Shown here: piece after piece, positions 10,601 through 34,268 of the stretch
Layout of the letters: each line of letters starts with the position of its first letter
Numbering within the stretch: the stretch's first letter is position 1
Source of the DNA: Elusimicrobiota bacterium
GTDB lineage: Bacteria; Elusimicrobiota; Elusimicrobia; UBA1565
Assembly: GCA_043819795.1 (NCBI GenBank)
Contig: JBDREN010000083.1
Coordinates: 5,298 to 69,297, forward strand
DNA length: 64,000 nucleotides
Direction: 5' to 3'
The notes under the pieces: generated by a model
What the model saw: only the letters and a program-made list of their open reading frames with translations
Databases searched by the model: none
Told to the model about the DNA's origin: nothing
Position numbers and translations under genes: made by a program

Positions 10601-12225
10601 CGGCGCACCTGCTCCAGCGCGATCTCGTAGCGGCGCACCAGCTCGGCCTCCCGCAGGTGCCACTGCTTATCGAGGTTCTTCTCCTTCTGGATGTACTCCG
10701 AGATCACGGTCTGCTTCCACGTCCGGAACTGCTCCTCGATCGTCTGCTGGGTCCTCTCCAGCTCGGCGACCCGGGCCTGGTAGGCCTCCTCGAGCGTCCG
10801 GTCGCGCTGCTCGAACTGCGACTTCAGGGAAGCCCGCTCGGCCTCGACGGCCTTCTCATGCTCCTCGAGGAGCTCCATCTTGCGGCGCGTCCACTCCTCG
10901 CGCAGCGCGTTCTCCTTCGCCAAGTACTGCTCCTGCATCTCCACGTGCTTGTGCTGGGAGGCCTCCTCGAGCGCCTTCTCGCGCTCTTGCACGCGGTTCT
11001 CGGCCTCCGCCCAGCGGGCGTTGAACTCGGCTTCGAGGGCGGTGCGTTGGCGGTCCCCGTCGCGCTGGACCTCGGCCTCCCGCCGCTCGAGGTCCCGGGA
11101 CCGCGCCTGATACTCCTCCTCGAGGGCCTTGGCGCGCTGTCGCGCCCGCTCGGCGGCTTCCGCCTTTTCCTTCTCGAGCTCGTCCTCGACGCGCTTGAGC
11201 AGCTGCGCCTCCTTACGGATGTGGCTCTGCTGCTGCTGGGTCTCCATCTCGGCGTAACGCGTCTCCACGCTCTTCACACGCTTCTGGAAGTCCTCCTCCA
11301 GCTCCCGACGCCGGCGCTCGAGAAGCCCTTCGATCTCGCGCGAGCGGTCGGCCAGCGCGCGGGCACGCTCCTCGAACTGCTCCTGCACGGCCGTATCCAG
11401 CTTCTCACGCGCATCCTTCGCGCGCTGCCACAAGCCGTTCTCGAGCTCCGCCCAGGCGGCCTGCAGCTCGGCCTCGCGCTTGCCGTACTTCTCCTGCAGG
11501 GCGAGCTCCTTGGACCGGAACTCCCCGAAGAGCTTCTCCTCGCGCTCCTGGAGCTTGAGCTCGCCCTCCTTCGCGGCGGCGGCCAGCACCCGCTGGAACT
11601 CCTCGTTCTTGCGCCTAAGATCGAGTATCTCGCGCTCCTTGAGCTCGAGCTCCGCCTCGCGGTTCTTCAGCGTGTTGAGGATCTCCTCGTCGCGTTTCTG
11701 GCGCAGCCGCTGCACCATATCCTGGTCGCGGTGGAAACGGTTGACGAGCTCGGCCTTCTCGCGCTGGGAGGCCATCAGCTCGGCGTCGCGCTGCTCGAGA
11801 ATGCGCCTGAGCTCCCGCCACTGCTCCTCCTTGGAGCGGTGCGTGCCCTTCCACTGCTGGACCTCTGCCGTCAGGCGGGACAGCTCCTCGTCCATGTGCC
11901 CGCGGTCGCGCTCCACGCGCGTCCGTTCCTCTTCGCGGACCTCGAGACGCACACGGTCGCGCCAGCGCTGCTCCTGATCCCGATGATTCTTGCGCTCCTC
12001 CTCCCAGCCTTTGGACTCGTCCTTCCATGCGGCGACCTGTCTCGTCAACTCCTCCTTCTCCTGCTGGAGCATCTGCTGTCCGTTCTGGGCTTCCTGGAGG
12101 TTCCCCTTGAGGCGCACATTCATATCCTGGAGGTCACGGATCGTGGCCACGGCCCCCCGGATCGCAAGTCGCGCAGCTTCCAGATCGGTTATCTCTCGAT
12201 ATGCCTCTTCATCCCATGGGTTCAT
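4627..12225 (-). CDS. giant (~2530 aa) coiled-coil sensor histidine kinase: ~2250 aa of E/R/K/A/L/Q-rich heptad sequence then HisKA (IAHQIRNPL) + HATPase_c (GTGLGLGVA)
   Basis: Single ORF 4627..12309; real start MNPWDEEAYRE at 12225 supplied by upstream repeat unit (GGGAGGcgaccATGA); no TM segments evident; internal 58-codon tandem duplication. Confidence 0.85.
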   Translation of the reverse strand: MNPWDEEAYREITDLEAARLAIRGAVATIRDLQDMNVRLKGNLQEAQNGQQMLQQEKEELTRQVAAWKDESKGWEEERKNHRDQEQRWRDRVRLEVREEERTRVERDRGHMDEELSRLTAEVQQWKGTHRSKEEQWRELRRILEQRDAELMASQREKAELVNRFHRDQDMVQRLRQKRDEEILNTLKNREAELELKEREILDLRRKNEEFQRVLAAAAKEGELKLQEREEKLFGEFRSKELALQEKYGKREAELQAAWAELENGLWQRAKDAREKLDTAVQEQFEERARALADRSREIEGLLERRRRELEEDFQKRVKSVETRYAEMETQQQQSHIRKEAQLLKRVEDELEKEKAEAAERARQRAKALEEEYQARSRDLERREAEVQRDGDRQRTALEAEFNARWAEAENRVQEREKALEEASQHKHVEMQEQYLAKENALREEWTRRKMELLEEHEKAVEAERASLKSQFEQRDRTLEEAYQARVAELERTQQTIEEQFRTWKQTVISEYIQKEKNLDKQWHLREAELVRRYEIALEQVRRAARMEMEKTKEEHDQRRQRDEADLFGRSEKMKQDYARLERDLEDRYDRREAEAKDAHAAEVRALKEAQGRHLLQQARHLDAEYERREAEWKLRVKNLKEGHQSELLEREKQLSEKDLELSRVREEFEKLDAEKRALWEDLQSRERRHEAERVSIQEAQKRREAQREEKYIEMERGLQELWTGKEREYLSRRQEALQAQAQRFAETVQALEAERQKEREQHAAALAEADSQLAVRFEAWKRDALAESEKEKEQWLERQRRMTIREREQQKEHARAHLEALNAESNEREGELAKRRDALQAYHRKREEELADEWRLRERRFIEEQQVVLTRERQSLDELYRSREETLHSNYVSLEKQLKDDRAHKAQLLEEESAEKLKRSLKEQEDGIQRKVRQSEAEFEVKRAAQLESQRAVLEEEYERKQLELEKLQAQLQKEMREKETRLDKSYLEREAELEKRWSQRESELLQKVDEERESYRARIRYETERIAGEMREAIAQREAELKNQQDNLEREYKRRLAESRAEMKKRNDAWLDHQRREIAKEYQHFQEEHRKAMAAQAAELESRVKDLDSRRQALEAEYKSKDESLGEDLRRREQAMVSEMQDNQSRERAALDALYREREDALQKNFLQLEAELKAEWEHKQDLSKREAEDRLAAELRSFTERLNEREARWEDESRRKLEAALEKQRAALEAEYDRREGELDRLRFELEKAIRSQEADLEKAHQQRLSELESDFRKREDAANNERAQAMERLERRKVESESERAEMHRAFEDRQREMDLVLRGREEAIERERTRIEDETGRKKRELETSRMDEEKRLQEREARLEREFEKRKEESRSALAARESELRAALVEERRRLQETYEEHERVLAERQAELIYKEKQLDQAAEQRQDELARKEKALEEARLALEERAREGEADLQRAYSAREEQLRAGFAKRDAELSARTQRERKAFQEELAHRRSLLESEHGDRAAEVESAVRQKEEELAAERERLEAELARRMRELDASKLQVEKSLRERETQLENAFRAREEGVRSASALRERELRAGFERDRETLAAEQQTLEQAVRARQAELERKTEELESARKRVEDSLRKREQALEESFAQSEAELRDALAMEQQKQEQGVRARQAELERQTEGLGAAQKRVEDSLRKREQALEESFVHREAELRKELADQRTELAARFERERQEQVREIESKSAALAERSRDVEKARAGLEAEYRNRQEELQAAYQARHGELERERAELAAEEVRRSRELESFKSGVAREYRERERALEKAVSEKEAELRRAREEAEAEVSGHLDAQREALREDWAKAKAELEVEVEESRRKLKARETELREAYARKETAMRESVEEREAELERERSDLRQSVAAEREALERARAGLDARRAELERDFRERETALQREHLGREEELQRAWKKREEALLNEVSEAQERNRAELRKSSEEMHVALRDEMARREEGLDAERAALQKEFLHKVEEARRGIRREERARYDRDLQTKEDDLRAQLKEKEEEFRLHAESLEDQLRKREDLLEKQGEERRLAHERDLDAQLEHERRLLRESQRAADEDQARRREELEREMRTVLAEKESALLAANRKRLVVERTRLEAEFDERRKELEEQSAVQVEQTARLQGERLQKQQETASSELHKREAELDARDKALKEREQSGEKRLMDESAQKEAEVERRREEVEELLRGTDKKLRERLKNEEAELERRRRKLDEEMTARERQSQGREDKLAGAEVDIERRQRELRQLRDRLLSGLKPEAETGRLPQVAFETELTDLVFGIAHQIRNPLGIIQSLAEDRLSGLWVGGKERATMDAILRAIGNLRERLEQLTDFTRPLGLKPQALEVEAWIDSAVAEVARQCDEKHIRIVADVAEGVPELRGDSERLKEALLHLLLNSIEAMPEGGTLTIRARYQAARGTVRVEVSDTGAGVAPEHVKDVGRPFYTMKAGGLGLGVAIAKRIVAAHGGSFEFRSKKDAGSTSTVTLSVEAKRG

Positions 12226-12348
12226 GGTCGCCTCCCATGGAGATGGACGCGGCCATCCCCTGCGCGATGCTCGGTCATGGTCGCCTCCCACGGCAGTCGA
12301 CGCGACCATTTCCTGCGCTATGCTCGGTCATAACACTGCCTCCAGGTA
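12222..12348 (-). repeat. two tandem 57-nt copies of SD/start-codon-bearing intergenic repeat (mini-ORFs MTEHSAGNGRVDCRGRRP* and MTEHRAGDGRVHLHGRRP*), with own GGAGG SD, ATGA-coupled to each other and to the giant HK start
   Basis: Reverse complement matches repeat at 50606-50719 and 59231-59397; internal 8-bp inverted repeat ATGGTCGC/GCGACCAT; GGGAGG 6 nt before terminal ATG. Confidence 0.7.
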
Positions 12349-12547: not shown

Positions 12548-12774
12548 TAACAGTCCGTGGCAAAAGTCTTCCGGGGCCTGCGATCGCCTGGATGCGGCCT
12601 GCGCCCGCGTTGCTCCTCGGTCACACCGGGCCCCGGCAGGGGCCCAGTGCCGCACGACCTCAGGAAATGCTTCGGAGCGCTGTCATCCCGTAGAGGGATG
12701 CTACCTCGTCGCGCCTTGGCTCGGCTCGCCCCGGACGATTTCGCCATCCGAAATACTTTTGCCACGGACTGTTA
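12548..12774. mobile_element. MITE-like element: 20-bp perfect terminal inverted repeats TAACAGTCCGTGGCAAAAGT flanking ~187 bp, in intergenic region between two HK genes
   Basis: Left IR 12548-12567, right IR 12755-12774 (exact reverse complement); right IR overlaps stop codon of PAS-HK gene; symmetric spurious ORFs MAKVFR on both strands. Confidence 0.45.
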
Positions 12775-13839
12775 AGGCCGCGATCGAGCGGGGAAGACAA
12801 CGGTGACGGCCGTCCCTCGGCCGGCCTCGCTGTCGAAGGAGATGGTCGCCTCGTGCTCGGCCAGGACGCGCTTGGCGAGATAGAGCCCCAGACCCGTGCC
12901 GTCCTCTTTGGTCGTGAAGAAGGGCGCGCTGACCTTCGCCAACACCTCGGGCGCCATCCCCGCGCCCGAGTCCCCCACGACGAGACGCGCCCCCCCCCGC
13001 TCCGGGACGTCCGTGACGACGCGCAGGCGCCCCCCTTTCGGCATGGCCTCGATCGCGTTGACCAGCAGGTTATGGACCACGGCGCGGACATGCTGCTCGT
13101 CGAGGAGCAGTCTCGGGATGTCGCCGAGCCGCACATCGAGCTCGATCCGCTGCTTCTGGCACATCTTCTCGACGAGACGGACGACGCCGCGCGCCACCTC
13201 GTTGAGCGAGCCCTCGCGCAAGAGAGACTTCCCCACCTTGGCGAAGTCCAGAAGGGCCCGTATCGAAAGCGACCCGTGCCGGGCGTTGCGGAGGATCATC
13301 TCGAGGTTCTCTTTCATCTTGGAGTCGGGGGAGAGGGACTCGAGCCCGAACTCGGCCGTGCTGGCGATGACGTGCAGCGGCGTGCGCATCTCGTGAGCGA
13401 AGGTCGCCGCCATTCGCCCGACAGCGCTGAAGCGCTCCATCCTGACCAACGCCTCCTGGACGGCCTTGTGCTCGGGGGCCGTCTCGAAGTCGGCCACGGG
13501 GGGGCTGATCATGACGAGGAAGGCCTCGGGGCCCTTCCCCAGCGAGCGGACGGTCAAGAACACCCTTTCCGGGCTCCCGTCGCGGCGCGTCATCCGCGCC
13601 TCGTAGTTTTTGAGCACCTTCACGTTGCAGGCCGCCTTGAGCAATCCGACGCATTCCTCCCGCCTCGGGAAGAACTCCGCGAAGTCGCGATCGACAGCCT
13701 CCTCGAGGGGGACGCCAAGGAGCTCGGCGGCTCCGCGGGACCACGTCCGGACCACGCGGGAACCGTCGAGCCCGACGAGCGCATCCTCGGACTCGTCGAA
13801 CATGCAGGCGAAAAGGCGGTCTTTCAACCGTTCTTCCAT
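12772..13839 (-). CDS. PAS-domain sensor histidine kinase (PAS + HisKA FAHEMRTPL + HATPase_c)
   Basis: Motifs FAHEMRTPLHVI, NLLVNAIEAM, GDSGAGM, GTGLGLYLAKR. Confidence 0.85.
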   Translation of the reverse strand: MEERLKDRLFACMFDESEDALVGLDGSRVVRTWSRGAAELLGVPLEEAVDRDFAEFFPRREECVGLLKAACNVKVLKNYEARMTRRDGSPERVFLTVRSLGKGPEAFLVMISPPVADFETAPEHKAVQEALVRMERFSAVGRMAATFAHEMRTPLHVIASTAEFGLESLSPDSKMKENLEMILRNARHGSLSIRALLDFAKVGKSLLREGSLNEVARGVVRLVEKMCQKQRIELDVRLGDIPRLLLDEQHVRAVVHNLLVNAIEAMPKGGRLRVVTDVPERGGARLVVGDSGAGMAPEVLAKVSAPFFTTKEDGTGLGLYLAKRVLAEHEATISFDSEAGRGTAVTVVFPARSRP

Positions 13840-14028: not shown

Positions 14029-14919
14029 ATGAAGCCCGAGTCACCAACCGCAGCGCAGAAGCCGGCCGAGATCCGCGAGGGCCTGTGGAAGATCAAGCTG
14101 CCCAATCCGAAGTCCTTCTTCAAGATCGGGGTCGGCAAGAAGCACGCCCAGGCGAACTCTCTGTTCCTGGAGATCGACGGCAAGCGCCGCTTCGAGATCG
14201 GAAACGACTGCGACACCTGCCACTTCTGGTTCAAATGCCTGCAGGATCCTAAGATCTTCGCCCAGAAGAAAGTCGTCAACCTCCCGAAGTCCTTATCGGT
14301 GCCGCGCCCCCTCGACGCAAAGCTCATCCGCGAGATCCTCCCGGTGATCGAGCTCATGGACAAGGGGGATCACTACATATTCAACACGAAGCTCCAGCTC
14401 GCCGGACCGTACCGTTCCGACGACGAGTCCTCCTACTTCTACAACAGCGAGTTCATGGAGATATGGGACATCGAGGACCCCGCCTCCGAGGACCTCCTCT
14501 CCGGCTGGGAGCATTACGAGGGCAAGACCCCGCGCGTCTTTCGGCACGACGGTGTGATCGAAAAGCAGTTCGACTTCGTGATCCCTCTCGTCCCCCAACA
14601 ACGTCTCAAGCAGGAGAACATACGCGTCTACCAGCAGATGATCGCGGGCGGGGACCGGCCGCGGGTCCTGCTGCTGGGCATGCTCCACCGCCCCGTCCCC
14701 GGGAGCGTCTCCTCCGGACAGACGAAGAACCTGCATTCGTACTTCGCGGGCTTCGTGCTCGACGGGCACCACAAGCTGGCCGCCTATCAGCGCGCCGGGG
14801 TCCCGGTGAACTCCCTCGTAGTCTTGTCCCAGAAGGCCAGCAAGTACTTCCTGCTCGAGGGCGAATCCGCCCCTCAACGGACGCGCCTCGAGGACCGCCT
14901 GGCCTCGATGGCGACCTGA
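14029..14919 (+). CDS. hypothetical cytoplasmic protein (296 aa), lower GC than surroundings, no recognisable domain
   Basis: ORF with AGGAG SD and strong promoter; codon composition less GC-skewed. Confidence 0.6.
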   Translation: MKPESPTAAQKPAEIREGLWKIKLPNPKSFFKIGVGKKHAQANSLFLEIDGKRRFEIGNDCDTCHFWFKCLQDPKIFAQKKVVNLPKSLSVPRPLDAKLIREILPVIELMDKGDHYIFNTKLQLAGPYRSDDESSYFYNSEFMEIWDIEDPASEDLLSGWEHYEGKTPRVFRHDGVIEKQFDFVIPLVPQQRLKQENIRVYQQMIAGGDRPRVLLLGMLHRPVPGSVSSGQTKNLHSYFAGFVLDGHHKLAAYQRAGVPVNSLVVLSQKASKYFLLEGESAPQRTRLEDRLASMAT

Positions 14920-15167: not shown

Positions 15168-18100
15168 ATGCGGCGGACCAATGGGCCCAGGTGGGTTCTA
15201 CTCGCGGCCTGCGCGTTGAGCCTCCAGGGCGCCGCCCGCGCCGGGACCGGTCCCCGTCCCTCTCCGAAGAGACTCCAGGAAGAGAAGCTGCCCGGCGCCA
15301 TCGTCGCGAGGCTCCCTGTTCCCGCCGCCTTCGCGTCTCCGGGGGCCCCGGCTTCGACGCTCTCCTCTCCGGCGGTCCTGCTCGCGCGGGAGATCGATGA
15401 GCTGTTCGCCGGCCTGAGCAGTGAGACCAACGACGGCACGCGGGCTCTCCGCCAGCCGGCTCCGGAAAAAGCCCCGCCCCGGGGAACCGGCTCCGGACGG
15501 CTTTCGTCGCGATCGTCTCCCGCGGCGGGAACGCGCGAGCCCGCCGAGGTTTTCGCCGCCCTGGACCGACGGCTCTCCGACATCCGCGCCCGGATCATCG
15601 ATACGATCGACGATCCCGAGGAGGTCGCGATCCTCCTGGCCCGCGTCGACCGGATCCGTGGCGTCCTGGCCAAGCTCCGGAGGGCCGGGGAAACGGGCCA
15701 AGCCCGTTCCCTGTCCGGGGCGATGGCCGGACTGGCGCGGGCCCTCGGGCGGGGGACCGATGACGAGAACCTCTCCAGGTTCGAGACCCTGGTCGACCGC
15801 CTGATGCAAGCGCGGTCGCTGCCCCCCGACCGGCTCGGAACGATCTTCGACAACACGCCCGAGTTCCCGGACAGCGATGTTCTCGCCCCCGTCCCGGCGG
15901 AGGGCTTCAAGGCCCGGGCCCCGCGAGCAAGGGCGAGCGGAGCGGGCGTTTCGCAAGCGGCCCTGTTGGACATCGACCGCTACCCACGGCCCCTGACCGG
16001 GATCCGTGTCGACGGCGGCGTCGTTCCGAAGCCGAGAGGGCCGGGAACCTCGGCCAAGGCCGAGCCGGAGTCCGAGGTCGGCCGCCCACAGCGACGAGCG
16101 GTCACCGCTTCGCAGGGGCTTGAGCGCTCGGCTGTCGCGGCGCTCTCGCCCTTCGCGGGACTGAGCCCGAAAGGCCGCCAGGACCTGTTCCGAAAGGACC
16201 GGGCCGCTCTCAGGCGGGAGCTGCTCGCCGTCGGACTCCGGGCGCTCGAGGAGGGCGACGCGGAGCTCGAGCCGTATCGGGAGGATCTGGACGCCGCGGA
16301 CGGAAGGCTCTCCGGGATGCGTAAAGCGCTGCTGGCCCGGCTCGGGTTCGATGCGCCCCCGCACAACGACCAGGAGCGCAGCGGGCGGTTCGCGACTCTC
16401 ACGAAAGAAGCCCCCCATCTGTCTCTCTATTTCGCGCGGCGCGGGATTTACCAGATGCGCATGCGGCAGGCCCACGGCGAGCATGCCGTGCCGCCGGAGA
16501 CGCGCTTCGCACCCTGGGAACTCGGCATCGAGGACGGCAGCGAGAAAGCCGTCGTCTACGCTACGGCCAAGGACGGCGACCGCACGTTCTACGGGCTGCG
16601 CCGGGAGTTCCAGGACGGCTCCTCGCGCTTCGCGGCGACCGACGGAGCGGAGGGGCTGGTCGTCGTGGTGTCCCCCTCCGATAGCCGCGAGATCCGCACG
16701 CGTATCCGTTTCGACGACCAGGGCCGGCCGGATCGCACCCGGACCTCGATCATCGACACGGGGACCGGCAAGAGGATCCGGGAGGAGATCGCCGACATCG
16801 CGCGGGCGCTCACGCGCTTCGTCGATTACGATCAAGCCGGCGACGCGGTGAGGGTCCTGACCCTGGACAGCGGCACCGGCGAGCAGGTGGTGGAGGACCG
16901 CCGGCAGGGCCGCCGCGTCGCGACCGACAAAGACGGAAAGGTCACGATCACGCCGATCCGAGGCGGAGCCCAAGCCTGGCAGCAGCAGGGCCGGCTCGAT
17001 GAGAGCGGCCGCTTCATCCTCGACCGCCTGGTGCGCGAAGACGGCAGCGTCGTCGAGCGCGTCAGCCCGCACGTCCTGAAGATATCGCGAGACGGCAAGG
17101 CGCAGGGCTATGAGATCGTCGTCGACTCCATCTTCCATGGCGCCCGGGGGCCTGAGCGCGAAGCGGAGTCCTCCAGGATCGCCCGCGAGATCATCGCGGC
17201 GCTCGGCTACCAGGACAAAGACGACCGGCGCTCGCGCCCCCTTAGCAACTGGCTCTCCGACACCTGGACGAAGGACGAGCGGACGCGCGGCGTCGCGATG
17301 ACGGTCGATCCGCGCGGAAGGTTCCAGGTCGTCTACAGCTACAAAGACGGGACCAAGCGCATCGAGCGCGCCAAGTACGGCCTTTCGACCTCGTACGGCG
17401 ACGGGAAGCGGGAGCTCGCGCTCGTGACGCTGAGGCCGGTCCATACCGACCGCCAGGGCCGGGCGCGGCTGGACCCCCGGCGCTACCGCGAGTACCTGGC
17501 CGGCGGCGGCTACAACCAGTGGCATTCCACTTTCGAGTTCAAGAAGGCCGGCTGGTTCTCGAACGCGAAGACGATCGAGCACGTCTCCCTCATCCGCTAC
17601 GGCCGGGACGGAAGCCTTCCACGCCTGGGTCCCGGGAGCGGGGGCGAGCGGGACGGAGACTCCGGCAGCGGCCGCTGGACGGAACGCGGCCGGGAGAAGA
17701 AGGACGAATTCGTCAATGAGGTCGGCGGGACATCGACCTTCGGCATCGTGGGGACCGCGATCCATGAGGCGCCGGTGGTCGGGGACGTCCTGCAGGCCGG
17801 CGGAGCGGTCGGAAAGACGCTCTGGACGGGCATCATGGCGGCTCCGCCCACCTTCATCTATGCGGTCACCAAGGACACGGATTACGGCCTCGCCATGTCG
17901 GGAAGCTACGCGAAGAACCCCCTGGTGAACCGTCTGGTGGGAGACCAGGGACACCTCGACCGCATGGACGGCAAGATGTGGGAGGTCGTCCTTATCGAGG
18001 CCCGCGAAAACCGCCGAAAAGACCTCGATCAGATGGGCTACACCGAGGGGAATACGGACCCGGAGGAGCATCAGCGTTTGCTCTCCCAATGGCGCGGAGA

Positions 18101-20408
18101 CCGCTTCGTGTCCCCCGAGGATTGCCTCAAATCACATCCGCGCGGCTATTGCGATCGGTTCCGGTACAGCAGAGAGGAGCTCATGCGCGCGGTGCGCGGC
18201 TACGGCGCCCTGACCTGGGGCGACCGCCTGATCGAATCGGCCGAGGGCAAGAAGGGCGCGGCCTACTGCGCCACGGCCGGCGCGGGGTGGGGGCTCAAGG
18301 TGTTCGAGAACGTGGGCGAGACGCTCTTCAATCCCGTCATCTGGGCCACTTTCGGCGTGGGCAAGGGAGTGCAGGCCATGACGGCCATGCGCGCCGCGGG
18401 CAACAGCTCGCTCGCGGTCTCCGGCGCGCTCTCCACCGCTCGCGTCACGCACGCGCTCTTGAGCACGACGCTCTACAGCACGTGGGTCGTGGGCGGGGTG
18501 GACAACCTCGGCCAGACCGTGGTCGCGCTCCAGGAAGGCGACAGAGAACAGGCATTGAAGAAGTCGGCCGACCTCGGCACCGATCTCTTCTTCGTCTGGA
18601 TGATGGCCCGCGAGTCTCGCAGCCACAAGCTCCGCCAGAAGGCCCGACAGGCGCTCCTAAAGGAGCAAAGGCTGATCACAAAAGAATACAAGGCCGCTTC
18701 CAAAGCGGTCCGCACTAAGTCCGCGCACGCGACGAACGGCAAAGCCCCGGTCAAGAGCGCCGAGAAGGCGCTCCAGTCCAAGGCCGCGCACGCGACGAAC
18801 GGCAAAGCCCCGGTCAAGAGCGCCGAGAAGGCGCTCCAGTCCAAGGCCGCTCACGCGACGAACGGCAAAGCCCCGGTCAAGAGCGCCGAGAAGGCGATCC
18901 GTTCCAAGGCCGCGCACGCGCAGAAGCCCGCGAAGCCGGCCCCCGAGCCAAAAACGGAGGCCGCACGGGGCAAGACGACGGGCAAGGGCGAGACGCGGGC
19001 CACGAGCGGAGCCCCCAAGAAGCCGGCGCCGAGGACGATCAGGGAGCGCATGCACGAGTGGAAGGCCCGCCTGGTGGAGAACAAGCCCAGGGTCATGGAC
19101 TTTCTGAAGAAGCGTATGCCTAAGCTCAAGTCCTCTCAAGCATCCAAGGCCAAAGCGCTCAAGGCGCGCCAGACCGCAAGGCACACCAAGGCGAACCGGG
19201 CGAAGAAGACGGAATCCAAGTCCGGCAAGAATGCGAAGAGGGGAGGCGAGTCGCCGCTCCGGAATCTCGGCGAACGAGTCGTGGCGGTCGCCAAATCCTT
19301 GATCTCGAAGGGCAAGACGACGGGAAGGAAAGCCCGCAACGCCGGCAAGCTCAAGAAGGCCGCTGTCGCGCCCCGCGCAATCCTGAGTCCCGAGCTCAAC
19401 AGGTTCGCCTCCGAGACGGAGCCCGTACCCGCACCGGACCCGGCGGACTCGGACGCGCGATACACCGCCGATGAGGAGCCTGGAGAAGAGGCCGGCGTGG
19501 ATCCCGGGCAGCGCGGAGAAGACGACGGCCGCGCCGCCCGGGATGCCGCGAAGCCCCGGGCCGAGCCCTTGATCGGAGCCGGCCGCGCGGCGGATTCTCC
19601 CGCCGGCGCCCCGGATTCCGGCGGGGATCAGGCGAGCCCAGGCTCAGGCGGCGATTCCGGAAGCGAAGCCGGCGGCGGCGAGACCGGTTCGGGCACGGGA
19701 AGCGGCGCTCTGGGCGGCGGAAGTCTCGCGAGCGGATCGGGGAGCGGAGGCTCGGGCGGCGGCCGCAAGGGTGCGGGGCGGAATCCCCGCGTGCATGGGC
19801 GGGCGGGACAGAAGTTCGACGGTGGACGGACTACCGTCGCTCGCCTGACCCCGACTTCCCCCCGGCCGTTGCCCTCCCTGCAACCGGAGCGGCCCCGAAT
19901 CATGCCGAGAGCCCCCGAGCCCATAGATCCTTACCGCCAAGCGCACGCTTCGCCGGAGCGCCGGTCCGTCCCGCCAGTCGAGGAGAAACCCGCGCCCCGG
20001 GTGTCCAGGAAGAGTTCGCCGCCCGGGTTCAACGCGACGGGCGGGTCGGGCGGGTCTCTAGCGCCCGGCGGCCCGGAGTTCAAACCGCGGGACCCGTTCC
20101 CCGAGGGCAGGAAGGCGGCTCCGCCGGCGACACCTTCCCCGCCCCGAACCGAGGCGCGCAGCGGCGCTCCCGCCGCCGCGGCCGCCTCTCCCGCCGCGCA
20201 CGACGGCTTCTTCGAGATCCCGCGACACCGCCTCCGCCCGGCCGGCCACCTCCCCAACGGCCGCCTTCCCGAACGGGGGCAAGAGAGCCCCTACCGCGCG
20301 CACGCGCTCAGCCTCCTGCTGGAGCTGGCCGGGCTGGGGGCCGCGATCTACCTTTTTAGGCTCTCAAGATTCCCGTTCCTTATCGGCATCGCGCGCAAAC
20401 GTCTCTGA
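15168..20408 (+). CDS. giant secreted/membrane-anchored protein (1746 aa): signal peptide, large unknown domain, 3x21-aa tandem repeats, lysine/alanine-rich histone-H1-like basic region, G/S-rich and P-rich low-complexity region, C-terminal TM anchor
   Basis: Single long ORF; N-terminal MRRTNGPRWVLLAACALSLQGAARA; C-terminal LSLLLELAGLGAAIYLF; contains two in-frame copies of the 45-nt GC palindromic repeat. Confidence 0.7.
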   Translation: MRRTNGPRWVLLAACALSLQGAARAGTGPRPSPKRLQEEKLPGAIVARLPVPAAFASPGAPASTLSSPAVLLAREIDELFAGLSSETNDGTRALRQPAPEKAPPRGTGSGRLSSRSSPAAGTREPAEVFAALDRRLSDIRARIIDTIDDPEEVAILLARVDRIRGVLAKLRRAGETGQARSLSGAMAGLARALGRGTDDENLSRFETLVDRLMQARSLPPDRLGTIFDNTPEFPDSDVLAPVPAEGFKARAPRARASGAGVSQAALLDIDRYPRPLTGIRVDGGVVPKPRGPGTSAKAEPESEVGRPQRRAVTASQGLERSAVAALSPFAGLSPKGRQDLFRKDRAALRRELLAVGLRALEEGDAELEPYREDLDAADGRLSGMRKALLARLGFDAPPHNDQERSGRFATLTKEAPHLSLYFARRGIYQMRMRQAHGEHAVPPETRFAPWELGIEDGSEKAVVYATAKDGDRTFYGLRREFQDGSSRFAATDGAEGLVVVVSPSDSREIRTRIRFDDQGRPDRTRTSIIDTGTGKRIREEIADIARALTRFVDYDQAGDAVRVLTLDSGTGEQVVEDRRQGRRVATDKDGKVTITPIRGGAQAWQQQGRLDESGRFILDRLVREDGSVVERVSPHVLKISRDGKAQGYEIVVDSIFHGARGPEREAESSRIAREIIAALGYQDKDDRRSRPLSNWLSDTWTKDERTRGVAMTVDPRGRFQVVYSYKDGTKRIERAKYGLSTSYGDGKRELALVTLRPVHTDRQGRARLDPRRYREYLAGGGYNQWHSTFEFKKAGWFSNAKTIEHVSLIRYGRDGSLPRLGPGSGGERDGDSGSGRWTERGREKKDEFVNEVGGTSTFGIVGTAIHEAPVVGDVLQAGGAVGKTLWTGIMAAPPTFIYAVTKDTDYGLAMSGSYAKNPLVNRLVGDQGHLDRMDGKMWEVVLIEARENRRKDLDQMGYTEGNTDPEEHQRLLSQWRGDRFVSPEDCLKSHPRGYCDRFRYSREELMRAVRGYGALTWGDRLIESAEGKKGAAYCATAGAGWGLKVFENVGETLFNPVIWATFGVGKGVQAMTAMRAAGNSSLAVSGALSTARVTHALLSTTLYSTWVVGGVDNLGQTVVALQEGDREQALKKSADLGTDLFFVWMMARESRSHKLRQKARQALLKEQRLITKEYKAASKAVRTKSAHATNGKAPVKSAEKALQSKAAHATNGKAPVKSAEKALQSKAAHATNGKAPVKSAEKAIRSKAAHAQKPAKPAPEPKTEAARGKTTGKGETRATSGAPKKPAPRTIRERMHEWKARLVENKPRVMDFLKKRMPKLKSSQASKAKALKARQTARHTKANRAKKTESKSGKNAKRGGESPLRNLGERVVAVAKSLISKGKTTGRKARNAGKLKKAAVAPRAILSPELNRFASETEPVPAPDPADSDARYTADEEPGEEAGVDPGQRGEDDGRAARDAAKPRAEPLIGAGRAADSPAGAPDSGGDQASPGSGGDSGSEAGGGETGSGTGSGALGGGSLASGSGSGGSGGGRKGAGRNPRVHGRAGQKFDGGRTTVARLTPTSPRPLPSLQPERPRIMPRAPEPIDPYRQAHASPERRSVPPVEEKPAPRVSRKSSPPGFNATGGSGGSLAPGGPEFKPRDPFPEGRKAAPPATPSPPRTEARSGAPAAAAASPAAHDGFFEIPRHRLRPAGHLPNGRLPERGQESPYRAHALSLLLELAGLGAAIYLFRLSRFPFLIGIARKRL
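15899..15946 (+). repeat. 45-nt GC-rich palindromic repeat copy, in-frame inside giant secreted protein (EGFKARAPRARASGAG)
   Basis: Match to consensus GGAAGCCTTCAACGCCTGGGCCCCGCGAGCGAGGGCGAGCGGGAC. Confidence 0.6.
17606..17657 (+). repeat. 45-nt GC-rich palindromic repeat copy, in-frame inside giant secreted protein (GSLPRLGPGSGGERDG), flanked by GGACGGA direct repeats
   Basis: ggacggaagccttccacgcctgggtcccgggagcgggggcgagcgggacgga. Confidence 0.6.
18717..18905 (+). repeat. 3 x 63-bp perfect/near-perfect tandem repeats encoding KAAHATNGKAPVKSAEKALQS
   Basis: Units start 18717, 18780, 18843; partial fourth unit. Confidence 0.8.
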
Positions 20409-20450
20409 TGGTTCCGCAATTTGCTACACTCGGCAGGTAAACGCCCTGCC

Positions 20451-21470
20451 ATGAAGTGCCCGAACTGCCAGTTCGACATCAAAGAGTCCGTAGAGACATG
20501 CCCCTTCTGCAGCTTCGTGCTCCCCGTCGACGAGGAAGCGGAGCAGGACAATAAACCGCCCGATCTCCCATCGAGAACCGAGCAGACGGACCCCGCCGCG
20601 CCCAGCCTGATAGACCTGGACGGCGCGGATGTGGACCCCGAGGTCGGCCGGATCCCCAAGCGTCCGGAGGACGCGGCGGGCGCCGCACCGGAGCCGGTCC
20701 AAGCCCCGGAGCCGAAGCCCTCGGCTATGAAGTCAATCCTCACGTTGCTGGTCGCCGCCGCGATAGGCTTCGGCGGCTATCATCTGGGCCTGTTCGACAA
20801 CCTGCTGTCTTTGGCCGGCATCACGAGTGCGGCCCCGCAGCCCGAGGCGCAGACGGCCCGGCCCGGCCCGGACGCCCCCCGGCCCGCGCCGCCCTCTCCC
20901 GCCGCGCTCCCGACCTCATCGCCGGCCTCGGCGGGCGGCCCCATCGAGGAAGAGCCGCATCAGGGTCCGGCGGGCTCGGCGCTCGTCGACCCGCGCATGG
21001 CGGCGCTGCTGCAGGATCAGACCGCAGCGATCCAAGTCGAGCAGCCGCCTCCCCCCGAGCCCGAAGGAGACTGGGTATTCCTGGGGACGGTCTACGACAT
21101 GATCACGCTGAAGCCGATCCGCGACGCGCAGATGTTGTTCTTAAGCGGCAGCGCGCAGACCGACTACGACACGACCACGGATGCCAAGGGCCGCTACCGA
21201 ATCCGCCTGCCGGCGTCGACGCGCGACGACTACCGTTTGATCATCGACCATCCGGACTATCTGGCCGATTACTTCGACGAGAAGAGCCCCAGCTACCGGA
21301 CGGTCTCCCTCGCCGTCCGCCAACAGCTGCGCTCGGCCAAGCCGAAACTGGAGGCGTGGAAGGGCGTCGTGGGCAAGAACGCCCGCCGAGACATCGTCCT
21401 GTTCCCCGAGATCCCGGACCGGAACCTGCCCCCGGGAGAGTCCCACGGCGATTCCTTCCCGGCGCAATGA
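20451..21470 (+). CDS. zinc-ribbon (CPNC..CPFC) - TM - proline-rich linker - carboxypeptidase-regulatory-like domain protein
   Basis: MKCPNCQFDIKESVETCPFCSF; TM ILTLLVAAAIGFGGYHLGLF; C-terminal GTVYD..KPIRDAQ..TDAKGRYRIRLP. Confidence 0.6.
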   Translation: MKCPNCQFDIKESVETCPFCSFVLPVDEEAEQDNKPPDLPSRTEQTDPAAPSLIDLDGADVDPEVGRIPKRPEDAAGAAPEPVQAPEPKPSAMKSILTLLVAAAIGFGGYHLGLFDNLLSLAGITSAAPQPEAQTARPGPDAPRPAPPSPAALPTSSPASAGGPIEEEPHQGPAGSALVDPRMAALLQDQTAAIQVEQPPPPEPEGDWVFLGTVYDMITLKPIRDAQMLFLSGSAQTDYDTTTDAKGRYRIRLPASTRDDYRLIIDHPDYLADYFDEKSPSYRTVSLAVRQQLRSAKPKLEAWKGVVGKNARRDIVLFPEIPDRNLPPGESHGDSFPAQ

Positions 21471-22543: not shown

Positions 22544-23572
22544 ATGAGCCCGGATTCGCCGAAGAAAATCCTCGTGATCGTCCTGGACAATCTGGGCGAC
22601 GTCGTCATGGGAAGCTCGCTGTTCGGACCTTTGCGGACGGCGTTCCCGCGAGCCGCCATCGGGATCTGGGTCAAGAAATACGCGGCCGGGGTATTCGACC
22701 TTCAGGGCTCCTCGATACGGGTGCACGCCGCCGACCTTTTCTGGGACAAGTCCCCGGGCCGCGGGAAAGGAGGCTGGAGACCGTTCCTGAGGACCCTGGG
22801 AGAGATCCGGGCGGAAGGCTACGATCTGGCTTTCGTTCTGAACGCCGAATGGAGGCGCTCGCTGGCCTGTCGGTGGGCGGGGATCCGCAACCGGGTGGGC
22901 CACGGGAAGAGGAAAGCCGGGATATTCCTCTCCCGCGCCGTCCCCGCGACGGGCGGGCGCAAGCACGTGGTCGAGGAGCACGCCGAGCTCTTCGCCGCTT
23001 GGACCGGCGCGCGCCTTCCGCTCTCCCGCTTCAAGCCGCAGATCGGCTTGTCCGACGGGCAGAGAAGGCGCGGAGAGGAGTGGGAATCGGGCCTGCGGTG
23101 GTCGGACAAGACCATCGTGGTGCTCCACGCCTTAACGGGCGATCCCGGGAAGGATTGGCCTCTGCGCAAGTGGACCCGGCTCGTCCGGCTCCTGTCCCGA
23201 CGGTCGGATGATTTCCGCTTCGTCGTCCTCAGCTCCCCGAAAGAAGCGAGCGTCCTTAACGGCGTCTTCGAGGCGTTTCCCAAGAGCGCCCTGCGGGTCT
23301 CGGTGGGTTCCGTGTCCGAGATCAAGCCGATCGTCTCCCGGGGCGACATATTCATCGGCGGGGACTCGGGCCCGGGCCATCTGGCCGCCGCGCTGGGGGT
23401 CCCGGTCGTCTCCCTCTTCGGTCCGACCGATCCGGACCGCTACAGGCCGATCGGGGACGCCCCCATCAAGGTCATCCGCCGCGATCCTTTGAGCGAGCTC
23501 TCCGTCGACGAGGTCATTGAGACCGTACTGGCGAGCAAGGCCTCGAATTTCCTAAGCTTCGCTACTCCGTGA
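22544..23572 (+). CDS. glycosyltransferase family 9 (LPS heptosyltransferase-like)
   Basis: KILVIVLDNLGDVVM N-terminal GT9 motif; GGDSGPGHLAAALGVPVVSLFGPTDP C-terminal motif. Confidence 0.8.
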   Translation: MSPDSPKKILVIVLDNLGDVVMGSSLFGPLRTAFPRAAIGIWVKKYAAGVFDLQGSSIRVHAADLFWDKSPGRGKGGWRPFLRTLGEIRAEGYDLAFVLNAEWRRSLACRWAGIRNRVGHGKRKAGIFLSRAVPATGGRKHVVEEHAELFAAWTGARLPLSRFKPQIGLSDGQRRRGEEWESGLRWSDKTIVVLHALTGDPGKDWPLRKWTRLVRLLSRRSDDFRFVVLSSPKEASVLNGVFEAFPKSALRVSVGSVSEIKPIVSRGDIFIGGDSGPGHLAAALGVPVVSLFGPTDPDRYRPIGDAPIKVIRRDPLSELSVDEVIETVLASKASNFLSFATP

Positions 23573-23597
23573 AGCCGGAGGCCAAGCGAGACATCCC

Positions 23598-24293
23598 ATG
23601 AACACACCCGCCGCCAAGCGCGAACTTCGCGATTTCAGGTCCCCCCGAGTGATCCGAGCCCAGAGCAACGTGGTCCGCCTTTGGCACGCTCGTGAAGGGC
23701 GGATCCGCACCTGGCAGGACGCCCGCCGGAGGATCCCGACGGCAAGGGGCCGGCTGCGCGAACTGGCGTCCTCGATCGCCAGGATCAACAGCTACCAGTG
23801 GCACGAGGAGGACAAGGCTCGGGCCACCGGCGTCCGCGATGGCGTGATCGCCCGGATCAAGCGGAACATCGACGCGTCCAACCAGCGCCGGGTGGACGAG
23901 ATCGAGAGGCTGGATTCGTGCCTGGAGACGTCTCTGAAGGAGCTGGGACTCCTTGGTGATCCGCGACTACCCTTGAGCTCCGAGACGCCGGGCAGCATCG
24001 CGGACAGGATATCGATCCTTATCCTCAAGATCTATCACATGAGCGAGCAGCGTCGCAGGAAGGACGCCACTGCCGCCCAGAGGCGGAGGTTTTCCGGCAA
24101 GGTCCGGATATTGAAGGAACAGCTGGCCGATCTCTCATCCTGTCTGGACGCCCTGATGGAGGACATCCTCGGGAAGAGTCGGCGGTTCAAGACCTATTTC
24201 CAGCTCAAGATGTACAACGACCCGGAGACCAACCCTTACATGAGAACCGCCCGGCGAGGTCAGGGCTCGCGCAAGCCGACCGCCCATCGCTGA
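23598..24293 (+). CDS. hypothetical protein conserved next to LPS-core glycosyltransferases (possibly DUF4254-like)
   Basis: ORF with ATG; family assignment from memory only. Confidence 0.55.
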   Translation: MNTPAAKRELRDFRSPRVIRAQSNVVRLWHAREGRIRTWQDARRRIPTARGRLRELASSIARINSYQWHEEDKARATGVRDGVIARIKRNIDASNQRRVDEIERLDSCLETSLKELGLLGDPRLPLSSETPGSIADRISILILKIYHMSEQRRRKDATAAQRRRFSGKVRILKEQLADLSSCLDALMEDILGKSRRFKTYFQLKMYNDPETNPYMRTARRGQGSRKPTAHR

Positions 24294-24305
24294 CGGTACG
24301 GCTCC

Positions 24306-25730
24306 GTGCCGAAGCCGGAACCGACACCGCGGCCGGAGACCCCGCCCATAGCGGGACGGAAGCCTTCAACGCCTGGGCCCCGCGAGCGAGGGCGAGCGGG
24401 ACGGACGCGCCGGCTGCTGGCCTTCGCGTTGCTCGCCGGGGCGTTGGCGCGCTTCGCAACGGCATTCCTCTATTGGGAAGCGCCGCTCAGCCCGGGCGGC
24501 GATGACCTCCAGTACCATGAGCTGGCCTCCGGGATCGCTTCCGGGCGGGGATACCTCCTGCAGGACGAGCCGAGCGCCTACCGCGGCCCTCTCTACCCCC
24601 TCTTTCTGGCGGCGGCCATGCGGGTGACGGCCAGCGACGCGCCCGGCGTCCTCCGGCTCATCCAGGCGATCCTGGGCCTGCTGGCCCTCTGGCTCGTCTA
24701 CCGTCTAGGCGCGGCCATCCATTCCCCCGAGGCGGGCGCCTGGGCGGCGATGCTCATGGCTCTCTATCCGGAGCAAGTCCTGCTCCCGACGTCGCTCTAC
24801 ACCGAATGCTTCTACGCCTTGATCCTGCTCGTCGTGGCGTGGGCGCTCGCATGCTGGCGGCAAGACCCCCGGCCGGCGCGGCTCGCGGGGCTCGGCGCCG
24901 CGATCGGCCTGAGCCTGCTGACGCGTTCGACGCTGGCGGCCTTGCCCGTCCTGCTCGCGGCTTGGCGGCTCGCGGAGCTCCGCGCCGGACGACGGTGGCT
25001 GCGGGAAACCGCCCTTCTCGCCGTGACCGTTCTGCTGCCGCTCACGCCCTGGATCGTCCGCAACTACGCGCGTTTCGGCAGGGTCATCCCCATGGAGACC
25101 GGCGTCGCCGGTCCCGCGTTATGGTACGCCTCCAAGGGCTGGGTCACGGCGCCCTCGGACATGTCCAGCGTGGAGCCGATGAGGACGATGTACCGGAGGC
25201 TTCCGCATACCGAGTGGGACCGCTTCGCGACGCCGCGAGCCCTGCGCAACATGCGGGCCCGCCCGATGGCGTATCTTCTCGGATGCGCGAAGAGGGCTCT
25301 CTACCTTTGGACCACCGCATACACCCCCTACCTGCTCTACTACCACCACCGCCTCTCGGCGTGGATGCAGAGCGGCGGCCGCTGGAGCTGGATCGCCCTG
25401 GGCGACTGGCTCCTTCGGCTCTGCCTGATCCTGCCGGGGGCCTGGGTACTGCTCCGCAGCGCGCGAAAACGCGGCGGAAGCCTTCAGCGCCTGGGCCCCG
25501 CACCGGCCTCCAACGCAAATCCAAAGGGAGGCCGGCACGGCGCCCCTACCGGGGTGGACGCCGCGAGCACGGGCGAGCGGGGGCTTTGGGCGGTGGCCGG
25601 TTTGGTCCTATACTTCCACATCCACGTCTTCGCGACGGTCTTCGTCCGCTACATGGCGCCGGTGACGCCCCTGCTGTGCGTCCTGGCCGGGGCGGGGTGG
25701 GCCGAGTGGCGAGCCTCGCGCCGAGGCTAA
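24306..25730 (+). CDS. GT-C family membrane glycosyltransferase (ArnT/PMT-like, GT83-type); start uncertain (GTG), N- and C-terminal regions each carry a copy of the 45-nt repeat
   Basis: Multiple TM helices, motif LSPGGDDLQYHELASGIASGRGY; repeat copies at 24353-24406 and 25474-25583 in frame. Confidence 0.7.
   Translation: MPKPEPTPRPETPPIAGRKPSTPGPRERGRAGRTRRLLAFALLAGALARFATAFLYWEAPLSPGGDDLQYHELASGIASGRGYLLQDEPSAYRGPLYPLFLAAAMRVTASDAPGVLRLIQAILGLLALWLVYRLGAAIHSPEAGAWAAMLMALYPEQVLLPTSLYTECFYALILLVVAWALACWRQDPRPARLAGLGAAIGLSLLTRSTLAALPVLLAAWRLAELRAGRRWLRETALLAVTVLLPLTPWIVRNYARFGRVIPMETGVAGPALWYASKGWVTAPSDMSSVEPMRTMYRRLPHTEWDRFATPRALRNMRARPMAYLLGCAKRALYLWTTAYTPYLLYYHHRLSAWMQSGGRWSWIALGDWLLRLCLILPGAWVLLRSARKRGGSLQRLGPAPASNANPKGGRHGAPTGVDAASTGERGLWAVAGLVLYFHIHVFATVFVRYMAPVTPLLCVLAGAGWAEWRASRRG
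24353..24406 (+). repeat. 45-nt GC-rich palindromic repeat copy (gggacggaAGCCTTCAACGCCTGGGCCCCGCGAGCGAGGGCGAGCgggacgga), translated as [15 protein letters not shown]
   Basis: Best-conserved exemplar; 8-bp flanking direct repeat GGGACGGA. Confidence 0.65.
25474..25583 (+). repeat. 45-nt repeat copy split by a ~62-nt nested hairpin insertion (CCGGCCTCC..GGAGGCCGG)
   Basis: 5' half ggaagccttcagcgcctgggccccgca and 3' half cgcgagcacgggcgagcggggg separated by insertion. Confidence 0.5.
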
Positions 25731-34196: not shown

Positions 34197-34268
34197 TGCG
34201 CCCGGCAGGAATCGAACCTGCACCAGCGGTTCCGAAGACCGCTACTCTATCCGTTGAGCTACGGGCGC
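34197..34268 (-). tRNA. tRNA-Arg (anticodon TCG), 72 nt
   Basis: Hand-folded cloverleaf: acceptor GCGCCCG/CGGGCGC, D-stem GCTC/GAGT, anticodon stem GCGGT/ACCGC, loop CTTCGGA, T-stem GCAGG/CCTGC, T-loop TTCGATT. Confidence 0.9.

Follow-up and report, generated by a model that had tools for sequence, protein, structure and literature searches.

Envelope proteins that are tethered to a membrane and carry a disordered spacer are already a known kind of molecule. In TonB and TolA, a single anchor is joined to a folded far-end domain, which acts in the outer envelope, by a long, charged, low-complexity spacer (Glu-Pro/Lys-Pro repeats in TonB; a Lys/Ala/Glu-rich domain II in TolA). Ompα of Thermotoga maritima, which possesses an SLH domain and a rigid coiled-coil rod, is exported and bridges envelope layers with a globular N-terminal part, a long spacer, and a single C-terminal hydrophobic anchor. 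The C-terminal signals of the LPXTG/sortase, PEP-CTERM/exosortase, and GlyGly-CTERM/rhombosortase systems consist of a short motif, a hydrophobic stretch, and a terminal Arg/Lys cluster, with Gly/Pro-rich low-complexity sequence before them. Here we describe a 1,746-residue protein encoded at positions 15168..20408 of a 64,000-nucleotide stretch of an Elusimicrobiota genome (assembly GCA_043819795.1, contig JBDREN010000083.1, positions 5,298 to 69,297 of the forward strand; hereafter the window; G+C content 68%, 0.684). We tentatively propose, giving the idea not quite an even chance, that it is a Sec-exported type I (N-out, C-in) envelope protein in which an inner-membrane anchor and a spacer tether a head of new fold.

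Such a protein would resemble the described systems in layout and depart from them in its parts. Its polarity is opposite to that of TonB and TolA, as its anchor is C-terminal and its N terminus bears a predicted signal peptide that we expect to be cleaved; its head is about ten times larger than theirs and unrelated, it contains no TonB_C or TolA domain, and neither ExbBD nor TolQR is encoded among its neighbors. From Ompα it differs in its apparently new-fold head, its disordered, poly-Gly-containing type of spacer, and the lack of an SLH match.

Sequence features of the 1,746-residue protein

The gene lies on the + strand, as do all features below unless stated otherwise. It is a whole, single open reading frame (ORF), the longest in its neighborhood, and its product is identical to the NCBI entry [quoted passage not shown] (MAG, metagenome-assembled genome), encoded on a 72-kb contig. 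A predicted Sec signal peptide occupies residues 1–24/25 (15168..15242). On a heuristic reading, the N terminus MRRTNGPRWVLLAACALSLQGAARA/G (the slash marking the predicted cut) comprises three Arg, an 11-residue hydrophobic core (WVLLAACALSL), and then A-R-A before the G; equivalent N termini are found in nearly all N-terminally complete homologs. A lipoprotein signal was also considered. The sequence LAAC at residues 12–15 fits a lipobox, but a hydrophobic stretch of only six residues precedes it and homologs do not retain the Cys; this N terminus more likely carries a signal peptidase I site.

At the opposite end of the protein, residues 1711–1742, followed by RKRL, constitute its sole strongly hydrophobic segment. 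A core and a low-complexity tail lie between these termini. This layout, together with the tandem repeats, the basic Lys/Ala/Pro tail region, and the Gly/Ser linker detailed below, bears out the description given by an earlier, sequence-only reading of the window. That reading also saw no recognizable catalytic motif and assigned the core to no known family, and our searches agree: no part of the protein matches Pfam, NCBIfam, PHROGs, PADLOC, or PDB sequences, and no Pfam or NCBIfam family scores at E ≤ 1 over the whole protein.

A conserved core defines a family of large proteins

With residues 1–1200 as the query, an index-free HMMER search of 1.84 billion cluster representatives matched 54 besides the query itself (27 with E ≤ 1e-30), and the protein is therefore no orphan. 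When its full length was used in a word-indexed search, it matched only itself, probably because low-complexity words swamped the candidates. All named source organisms of family members are Elusimicrobia/Elusimicrobiota MAGs, and judging from these sequences the family so far looks confined to this phylum. Conservation extends over residues ~120–1190 of the query; sequence beyond this part is not alignable, and none of the 55 members matches a Pfam family within the core. The literature searched contains no description of the family, and neither there nor in the curated libraries searched are its C-terminal module or the family of its 296-residue upstream neighbor (both introduced below) described.

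Members that lack the C-terminal anchor end in other ways. P0013 terminates in GGDEF, kinase-like, and DUF6883 domains and is followed by a DUF4926 gene (locus L088), and P0034 (locus L087) terminates in ParBc_2, a ParB-like nuclease domain. A subfamily of 600–750 residues terminates exactly at the end of the core. P0044 (loci L005 and L006) also lacks the anchor. A gene encoding a Peptidase_M28 protein adjoins P0034 and also P0044. The members with other C termini and the short subfamily occupy other gene contexts, from which the 296-residue neighbor is absent. One Elusimicrobia MAG encodes three members (787, 2,221, and >834 residues) around the gene for that neighbor (locus L008, 260–13557), an arrangement that suggests local duplication.

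A conserved module at the C terminus

The C-terminal module of the family consists, in order, of a poly-Gly tract, the motif EDFSYTYLxPARHKYELP, and an anchor with the consensus …LALRxSAALSxGYLxxHS[DN]LPYLxGL[TS]RRRR. The anchor is present in ~22 of the 25 complete long homologs and in five further ORFs at the equivalent genomic position. From the preceding Arg to the basic cluster, the anchor spans a median of 23 residues, and its N-side flank carries a charge of +0.16 and its C-side flank one of +3.5. Under the positive-inside rule, such an asymmetry would leave the C terminus in the cytoplasm. Within the segment, Ser and Gly are invariant and Pro is near-invariant, and the presence of a conserved polar, Pro/Gly-containing motif inside an anchor suggests specific recognition within the membrane.

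In the 1,746-residue protein, the anchor (HALSLLLELAGLGAAIYLFRLSRFPFLIGIARKRL, residues 1712–1746, 20301..20405) has degenerated from the family consensus and contains one Glu and two Arg. Ahead of it lies a Pro-rich membrane-proximal region (19818..20270) with the semi-conserved motifs PEPIDPYR (19914–19940), FKPRDPFPEGRK (20079–20114), and FFEIPRHRLRPAGHLPNGRLP (20208–20270), the last of which is this clade's version of EDFSYTYLxPARHKYELP.

Five C termini from the family, compared with NCBIfam at E ≤ 10, matched only CoaP_CTERM (E = 0.17; 11.6 bits against a 35-bit cut-off), and no curated sorting model was hit at its threshold. Within the 64-kb window and 86 loci, the anchor motif occurs only on the large-gene family. 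Among the matches listed from a database search with the C-terminal module, the short proteins were fragments of family members at contig ends.

The tail varies across the family

The hypervariable tail begins with a basic, Lys/Ala-rich region of low complexity (residues 1151–1400, 18618..19367), in which 48 Lys, 22 Arg, 47 Ala, and 13 Pro occur among 250 residues and the net charge is approximately +55. A tandem repeat of 63 nt (18717..18920; 3.2 copies, 95% matching) encodes the 21-residue unit KAAHATNGKAPVKSAEKALQS; the core was also examined for internal repeats, and this tail repeat is the sole real one. An acidic, Ala/Pro-rich segment (residues 1401–1500, 19368..19667) with a net charge of approximately −13 follows, and then a Gly/Ser tract (residues 1484–1532, 19617..19763) that aligns with pure poly-Gly runs of ~20–40 residues in many relatives. 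Disorder-promoting residues account for 76% of the tail, versus 55% of the core.

Comparison of the 37 members with a tail indicates which of these properties are kept. Net tail charge ranges from −20 to +71, with many anchor-bearing members near neutral, and strong basicity is therefore not a conserved property; the 1,746-residue protein (+51) and its closest relatives, P0004 (+71) and P0003 (+56), represent the basic extreme. Distinct repeats have been expanded independently in the tails of different homologs. Retained across the family are length (mostly 670–770 residues in anchor-bearing members), low complexity and disorder, the Gly-rich tract, and the C-terminal anchor module. Homologs with poly-Gly, including those of loci L008, L011, L027, L030, and L053, carry it within the C-terminal ~250 residues, encoded by long (GGN)n tracts that are likely prone to slippage and assembly errors.

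The sequence-only reading likened the basic tail to the C-terminal tail of histone H1 and to chlamydial Hc1. As a loose likeness of composition this stands, since the tail is Lys/Ala-rich, low in complexity, and strongly basic over ~250 residues. With 19% Lys and 5% Pro it is less extreme than H1 tails, and the Lys/Ala-rich repeats match the composition of TolA domain II at least as well as that of H1. The protein differs from H1 and Hc1 in its predicted export signal and in a basicity that its family does not conserve, and no linker-histone, Hc1, or other DNA-binding model in Pfam or NCBIfam scores at E ≤ 1. Rather than forming a free end, the basic block separates the folded head from the conserved membrane anchor, a location expected of a spacer. 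Across the family, the H1-like basic character is a lineage-specific trait of a hypervariable spacer, not the key to function.

Predicted structure of the core

From an alignment of 52 sequences covering residues 101–1190, AlphaFold2 produced a confident core model (m65f02db34aa5) with a mean predicted local distance difference test score (pLDDT) of 78.2, a predicted TM-score (pTM) of 0.52, and 465 residues at pLDDT ≥ 90. The model divides into three parts. An N-terminal helical region (residues ~125–437, 15540..16478) is broken by a disordered loop (residues 229–317, 15852–16118) that is modeled with low confidence and poorly conserved. Next comes a β-hairpin meander (residues ~445–852, 16500..17723) of ~28 antiparallel strands and one helical insert, whose conserved motifs include PWELG, DGSxRF, and PRRWREYL. 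The third part is an all-helical domain (residues ~857–1189, 17736..18734) with a Cys-x8-Cys insert at residues 986–995.

The charge of these elements bears on where they might reside. Strands of the meander are polar, with 23–38% charged residues; this rules out an outer-membrane β-barrel and indicates that the β domain is soluble. Two Gly/Ala-rich stretches of the all-helical domain, residues ~861–900 (17748–17867) and ~1021–1120 (18228–18527), contain only 6–18% charged residues and are moderately hydrophobic throughout the family. Such a composition may point to an interaction with a membrane or with some hydrophobic partner.

Sequence, profile, and fold searches uncovered no homology between the core and a known enzyme family. 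Foldseek comparison with PDB and BFVD returned only generic β-hairpin matches, namely single-layer-sheet mutants of OspA (E = 8e-5), MORN repeats, and teneurin/Rhs shells (E = 7e-4 to 1e-2; ~1e-3 for teneurin), with TM-scores of 0.05–0.35 when normalized to the target and ≤ 0.11 when normalized to the query; the helical domain (residues ~857–1189) matched nothing in either database. A family-profile search of PDB sequences with the core likewise gave no match. Like OspA, MORN repeats, and the YD shells of Rhs and teneurin proteins, the modeled core strings together many antiparallel β-hairpins in succession, with Asp-x-x-Gly-Arg/Lys turns, but the TM-scores are very low and no sequence model matches. 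This likeness is one of architecture class and does not demonstrate homology, and the modeled core looks like a new-fold head without known relatives.

A proposed tethered envelope protein and its alternatives

We infer the export, topology, and tethering role of the protein as follows. A cleavable Sec signal peptide would carry the chain across the inner membrane, so placing outside the cytoplasm a folded head of ~1,100 residues made up of the helical region, the polar β-hairpin meander, and the all-helical domain. The head would be followed by a disordered, repeat-prone, highly charged spacer of ~550 residues, including the Gly/Ser tract that is poly-Gly in relatives. Transfer would stop at the C-terminal hydrophobic anchor, with the Arg/Lys cluster staying cytoplasmic, and the long, flexible tether would keep the head within the periplasm or at the outer envelope layers. 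Within the head, the low-charge Gly/Ala-rich helical stretches would be the likeliest places to touch a membrane or hydrophobic partner.

Several observations weigh against this picture. The topology rests on a heuristic reading of the sequence, and the pTM of 0.52 leaves the packing of domains in the core model uncertain. Sec export of a 250-residue stretch with a net charge of approximately +55 is unfavorable. The anchor is marginally hydrophobic and contains a conserved polar His-Ser-Asp, to which the 1,746-residue protein adds its Glu and two Arg; such a segment might lie at the membrane interface, or act as a signal for recognition or cleavage, instead of forming a stable transmembrane (TM) helix. 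Some members dispense with the anchor and have enzymatic C termini instead. Finally, the gene context, a conserved syntenic backbone of mixed functions, says little about role.

If the anchor is a signal, the C-terminal module could be recognized by a sortase-, exosortase-, rhombosortase-, or rhomboid-like enzyme that recognizes S-x-L-P-Y-L-x-G, cleaves the protein, and either releases it or attaches its head and spacer to the wall or an outer layer. The tripartite arrangement of motif, hydrophobic stretch, and basic cluster is that of known C-terminal signals, the invariant Ser and Gly and the near-invariant Pro are embedded in sequence of marginal hydrophobicity, and the module is preceded by a Gly-rich and then a Pro-rich stretch, as in the wall-spanning regions of sortase substrates. 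We nonetheless consider sorting unlikely: the S-x-L-P-Y-L-x-G motif falls inside the hydrophobic stretch or near its cytoplasmic end, not before it; the best curated CTERM model remains far below its cut-off; within the window and 86 loci the motif occurs on a single family, whereas known signals mark many substrates per genome; the short proteins among the listed database matches are fragments of that family; and no sortase-like gene was seen in the conserved neighborhood. Less probable still is the proposal of the sequence-only reading that the protein is a surface adhesin whose function is the binding of lipopolysaccharide (LPS), extracellular DNA (eDNA), or another anionic polymer by the Lys/Ala-rich tail. 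That the protein appears exported, that residues 1151–1400 are 19% Lys and 19% Ala with so high a net charge, and that its closest relatives are likewise strongly basic speak for such a function. The range of tail charge across the family weighs against it, as do the silence of H1, Hc1, and other DNA-binding models and the placement of the basic block between head and anchor. Moreover, no outer-membrane translocator by which it might reach the surface was detected, with no Pfam match to an autotransporter β-barrel or a TPS domain in any of the 55 members. Even so, the basic tail of this one lineage may bind polyanions.

A further possibility starts from the core, in which a β-hairpin shell and a membrane-active helical domain would form a polymorphic-toxin-like scaffold for delivering variable C-terminal cargo, the tail-and-anchor form being derived. 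The sequence after the conserved N-terminal core is indeed highly variable, the gene occupies its fixed site in some genomes and is missing from it in others, the helical domain conserves low-charge helices, and Foldseek finds weak matches to teneurin/Rhs YD shells. The GGDEF, kinase, and DUF6883 terminus of P0013, with its adjacent DUF4926 gene, and the ParB-like nuclease terminus of P0034 could be viewed as cargo, ParB domains being known toxin modules (PMC3482391). We judge this scenario very improbable, as TM-scores to Rhs and teneurin structures are only 0.05–0.07 and the expected accessories are missing: there is no RHS_repeat in the 55 members; no PAAR, HINT, LXG, or other trafficking domain; no DPxGL autoproteolysis motif; and no Y-x-Y-D-x-x-G-R (YD) motif. 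Most long members share the conserved anchor in place of diverse toxin domains, their tails are of low complexity and not folded domains, and no immunity-like gene lies 3′, where the downstream gene belongs to the conserved backbone.

Genomic neighborhood

The gene immediately upstream (14029..14919) encodes a 296-residue, phylum-restricted protein without a signal peptide. The sequence-only reading regarded it as an orphan of lower G+C content. The composition is as stated (0.62 versus 0.684 for the window); the gene is, however, no orphan, having homologs in 120 clusters (52–75% identity, all unnamed Elusimicrobia proteins) and in 80 species-level genomes, nearly all labeled Elusimicrobiota and a few labeled only "bacterium." It is the best-conserved gene of the locus, surpassing the large protein, with 57–65% identity in two syntenic loci. 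A CxxCH motif is invariant and a DGHHK motif near-invariant among its homologs, and its confident AlphaFold model (pLDDT 87.9, pTM 0.88) has no fold match in PDB by Foldseek (best E = 1.1).

Three assignments for this neighbor were tried and rejected. Its DGHHK echoes DGHHR, the ParB active-site motif of the ParB superfamily (PMC3482391), but no Pfam ParB model matched any of 43 homologs at E ≤ 10, and the Foldseek result above offers no support for a ParB/Srx fold. Kinship with the ParB-like C terminus of P0034, which would have made the latter a fusion, found no backing from BLASTP, and hhalign gave 3.3% against the ParBc_2 region. PDB profile matches to designed PPR proteins proved to be a repeat-summing artifact, with each domain i-Evalue >100.

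Homologs of the large gene begin ~100–200 nt 3′ of the 296-residue neighbor on the same strand. The core HMM identifies a member directly downstream in 44 of the 80 Elusimicrobiota loci, and the five additional anchor-bearing ORFs noted above occupy the same position. The order of the backbone is opposite-strand histidine kinases, the 296-residue gene, sometimes a ~412-residue gene, the large gene, a zinc-ribbon/TM/β-sandwich gene, Amidase_2, an M24 peptidase, and MscS. In ~15 loci, this backbone lacks the large gene and retains the neighbor, and in six loci the neighbor instead adjoins a type III glutamine synthetase (GSIII). An obligate functional pairing of the two is thereby weakened: because it comes and goes within a constant backbone, the large gene is best described as an accessory, fast-evolving insert at a fixed site, and the neighbor as independent of it. 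A functional link between these syntenic genes is not proven. Presence/absence variation, fast divergence, and repeat turnover would fit an exposed envelope component under diversifying pressure.

Downstream, a gene at 20421..21470 encodes a membrane protein with an N-terminal zinc ribbon, a single TM segment, linkers rich in Pro, and, at its C terminus, a CarboxypepD_reg-like β-sandwich. Its homologs are conserved directly 3′ of the large gene, starting 12–42 nt after its stop codon, and the two are therefore probably co-transcribed; the downstream gene is also present in backbones without the large gene. Envelope-type neighbors that recur are this protein, Amidase_2, BacA, and MscS.

Other features of the window and of related loci were recorded in passing. 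The ~412-residue gene, which has no Pfam match, separates the 296-residue gene from the large gene in L001 (6664–7929) and ~10 other loci, its place being taken in the window by a 248-nt intergenic gap. On the opposite strand, 4627–12309 (−) encodes a 2,560-residue protein with ~2,300 residues of uninterrupted, Glu/Arg/Ala/Leu/Gln-rich predicted coiled coil (20% Glu, 15% Arg), no hydrophobic segment, and a C-terminal histidine-kinase ATPase domain (HATPase_c, residues 2449–2555). These features suggest a soluble histidine kinase of giant size, built mainly of coiled coil. An ordinary PAS-HisKA-HATPase kinase adjoins it (12772–13839, −), and an opposite-strand kinase cluster lies upstream of the 296-residue gene in 57 Elusimicrobiota loci. 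An envelope glycosylation cluster at 22544–25730 (+) comprises a GT9 heptosyltransferase, DUF4254, and a PMT_2 family glycosyltransferase. A tRNA gene (34197–34268, −) is the sole Rfam match in the window at the gathering threshold, and Rfam matched nothing in or near the large-gene locus.

Discussion

The more ambitious view of this locus is that the large protein, its C-terminal module, the cytoplasmic 296-residue neighbor, and the zinc-ribbon/TM/β-sandwich protein belong to a trans-envelope apparatus specific to Elusimicrobiota. We consider this improbable. Such an apparatus might connect the outer envelope to the cytoplasm mechanically or by signaling, and its output might reach the giant coiled-coil histidine kinase encoded next to it; if it exists, it would be made of folds and an anchoring signal without described counterparts.

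For now, the practical value of the analysis lies in annotation and hypotheses. Domain databases stand to gain two uncharacterized families, those of the large protein and of the 296-residue neighbor, and one unrecognized C-terminal anchoring motif. The analysis also counsels caution in reading function from composition, as the striking H1-like tail proved to be a lineage-specific flavor of a hypervariable spacer. Very few Elusimicrobiota have been brought into culture, and understanding of their cell envelope is poor. Large, fast-evolving, and variable in presence, the family described here offers a concrete candidate for how these bacteria organize or expose their envelope.

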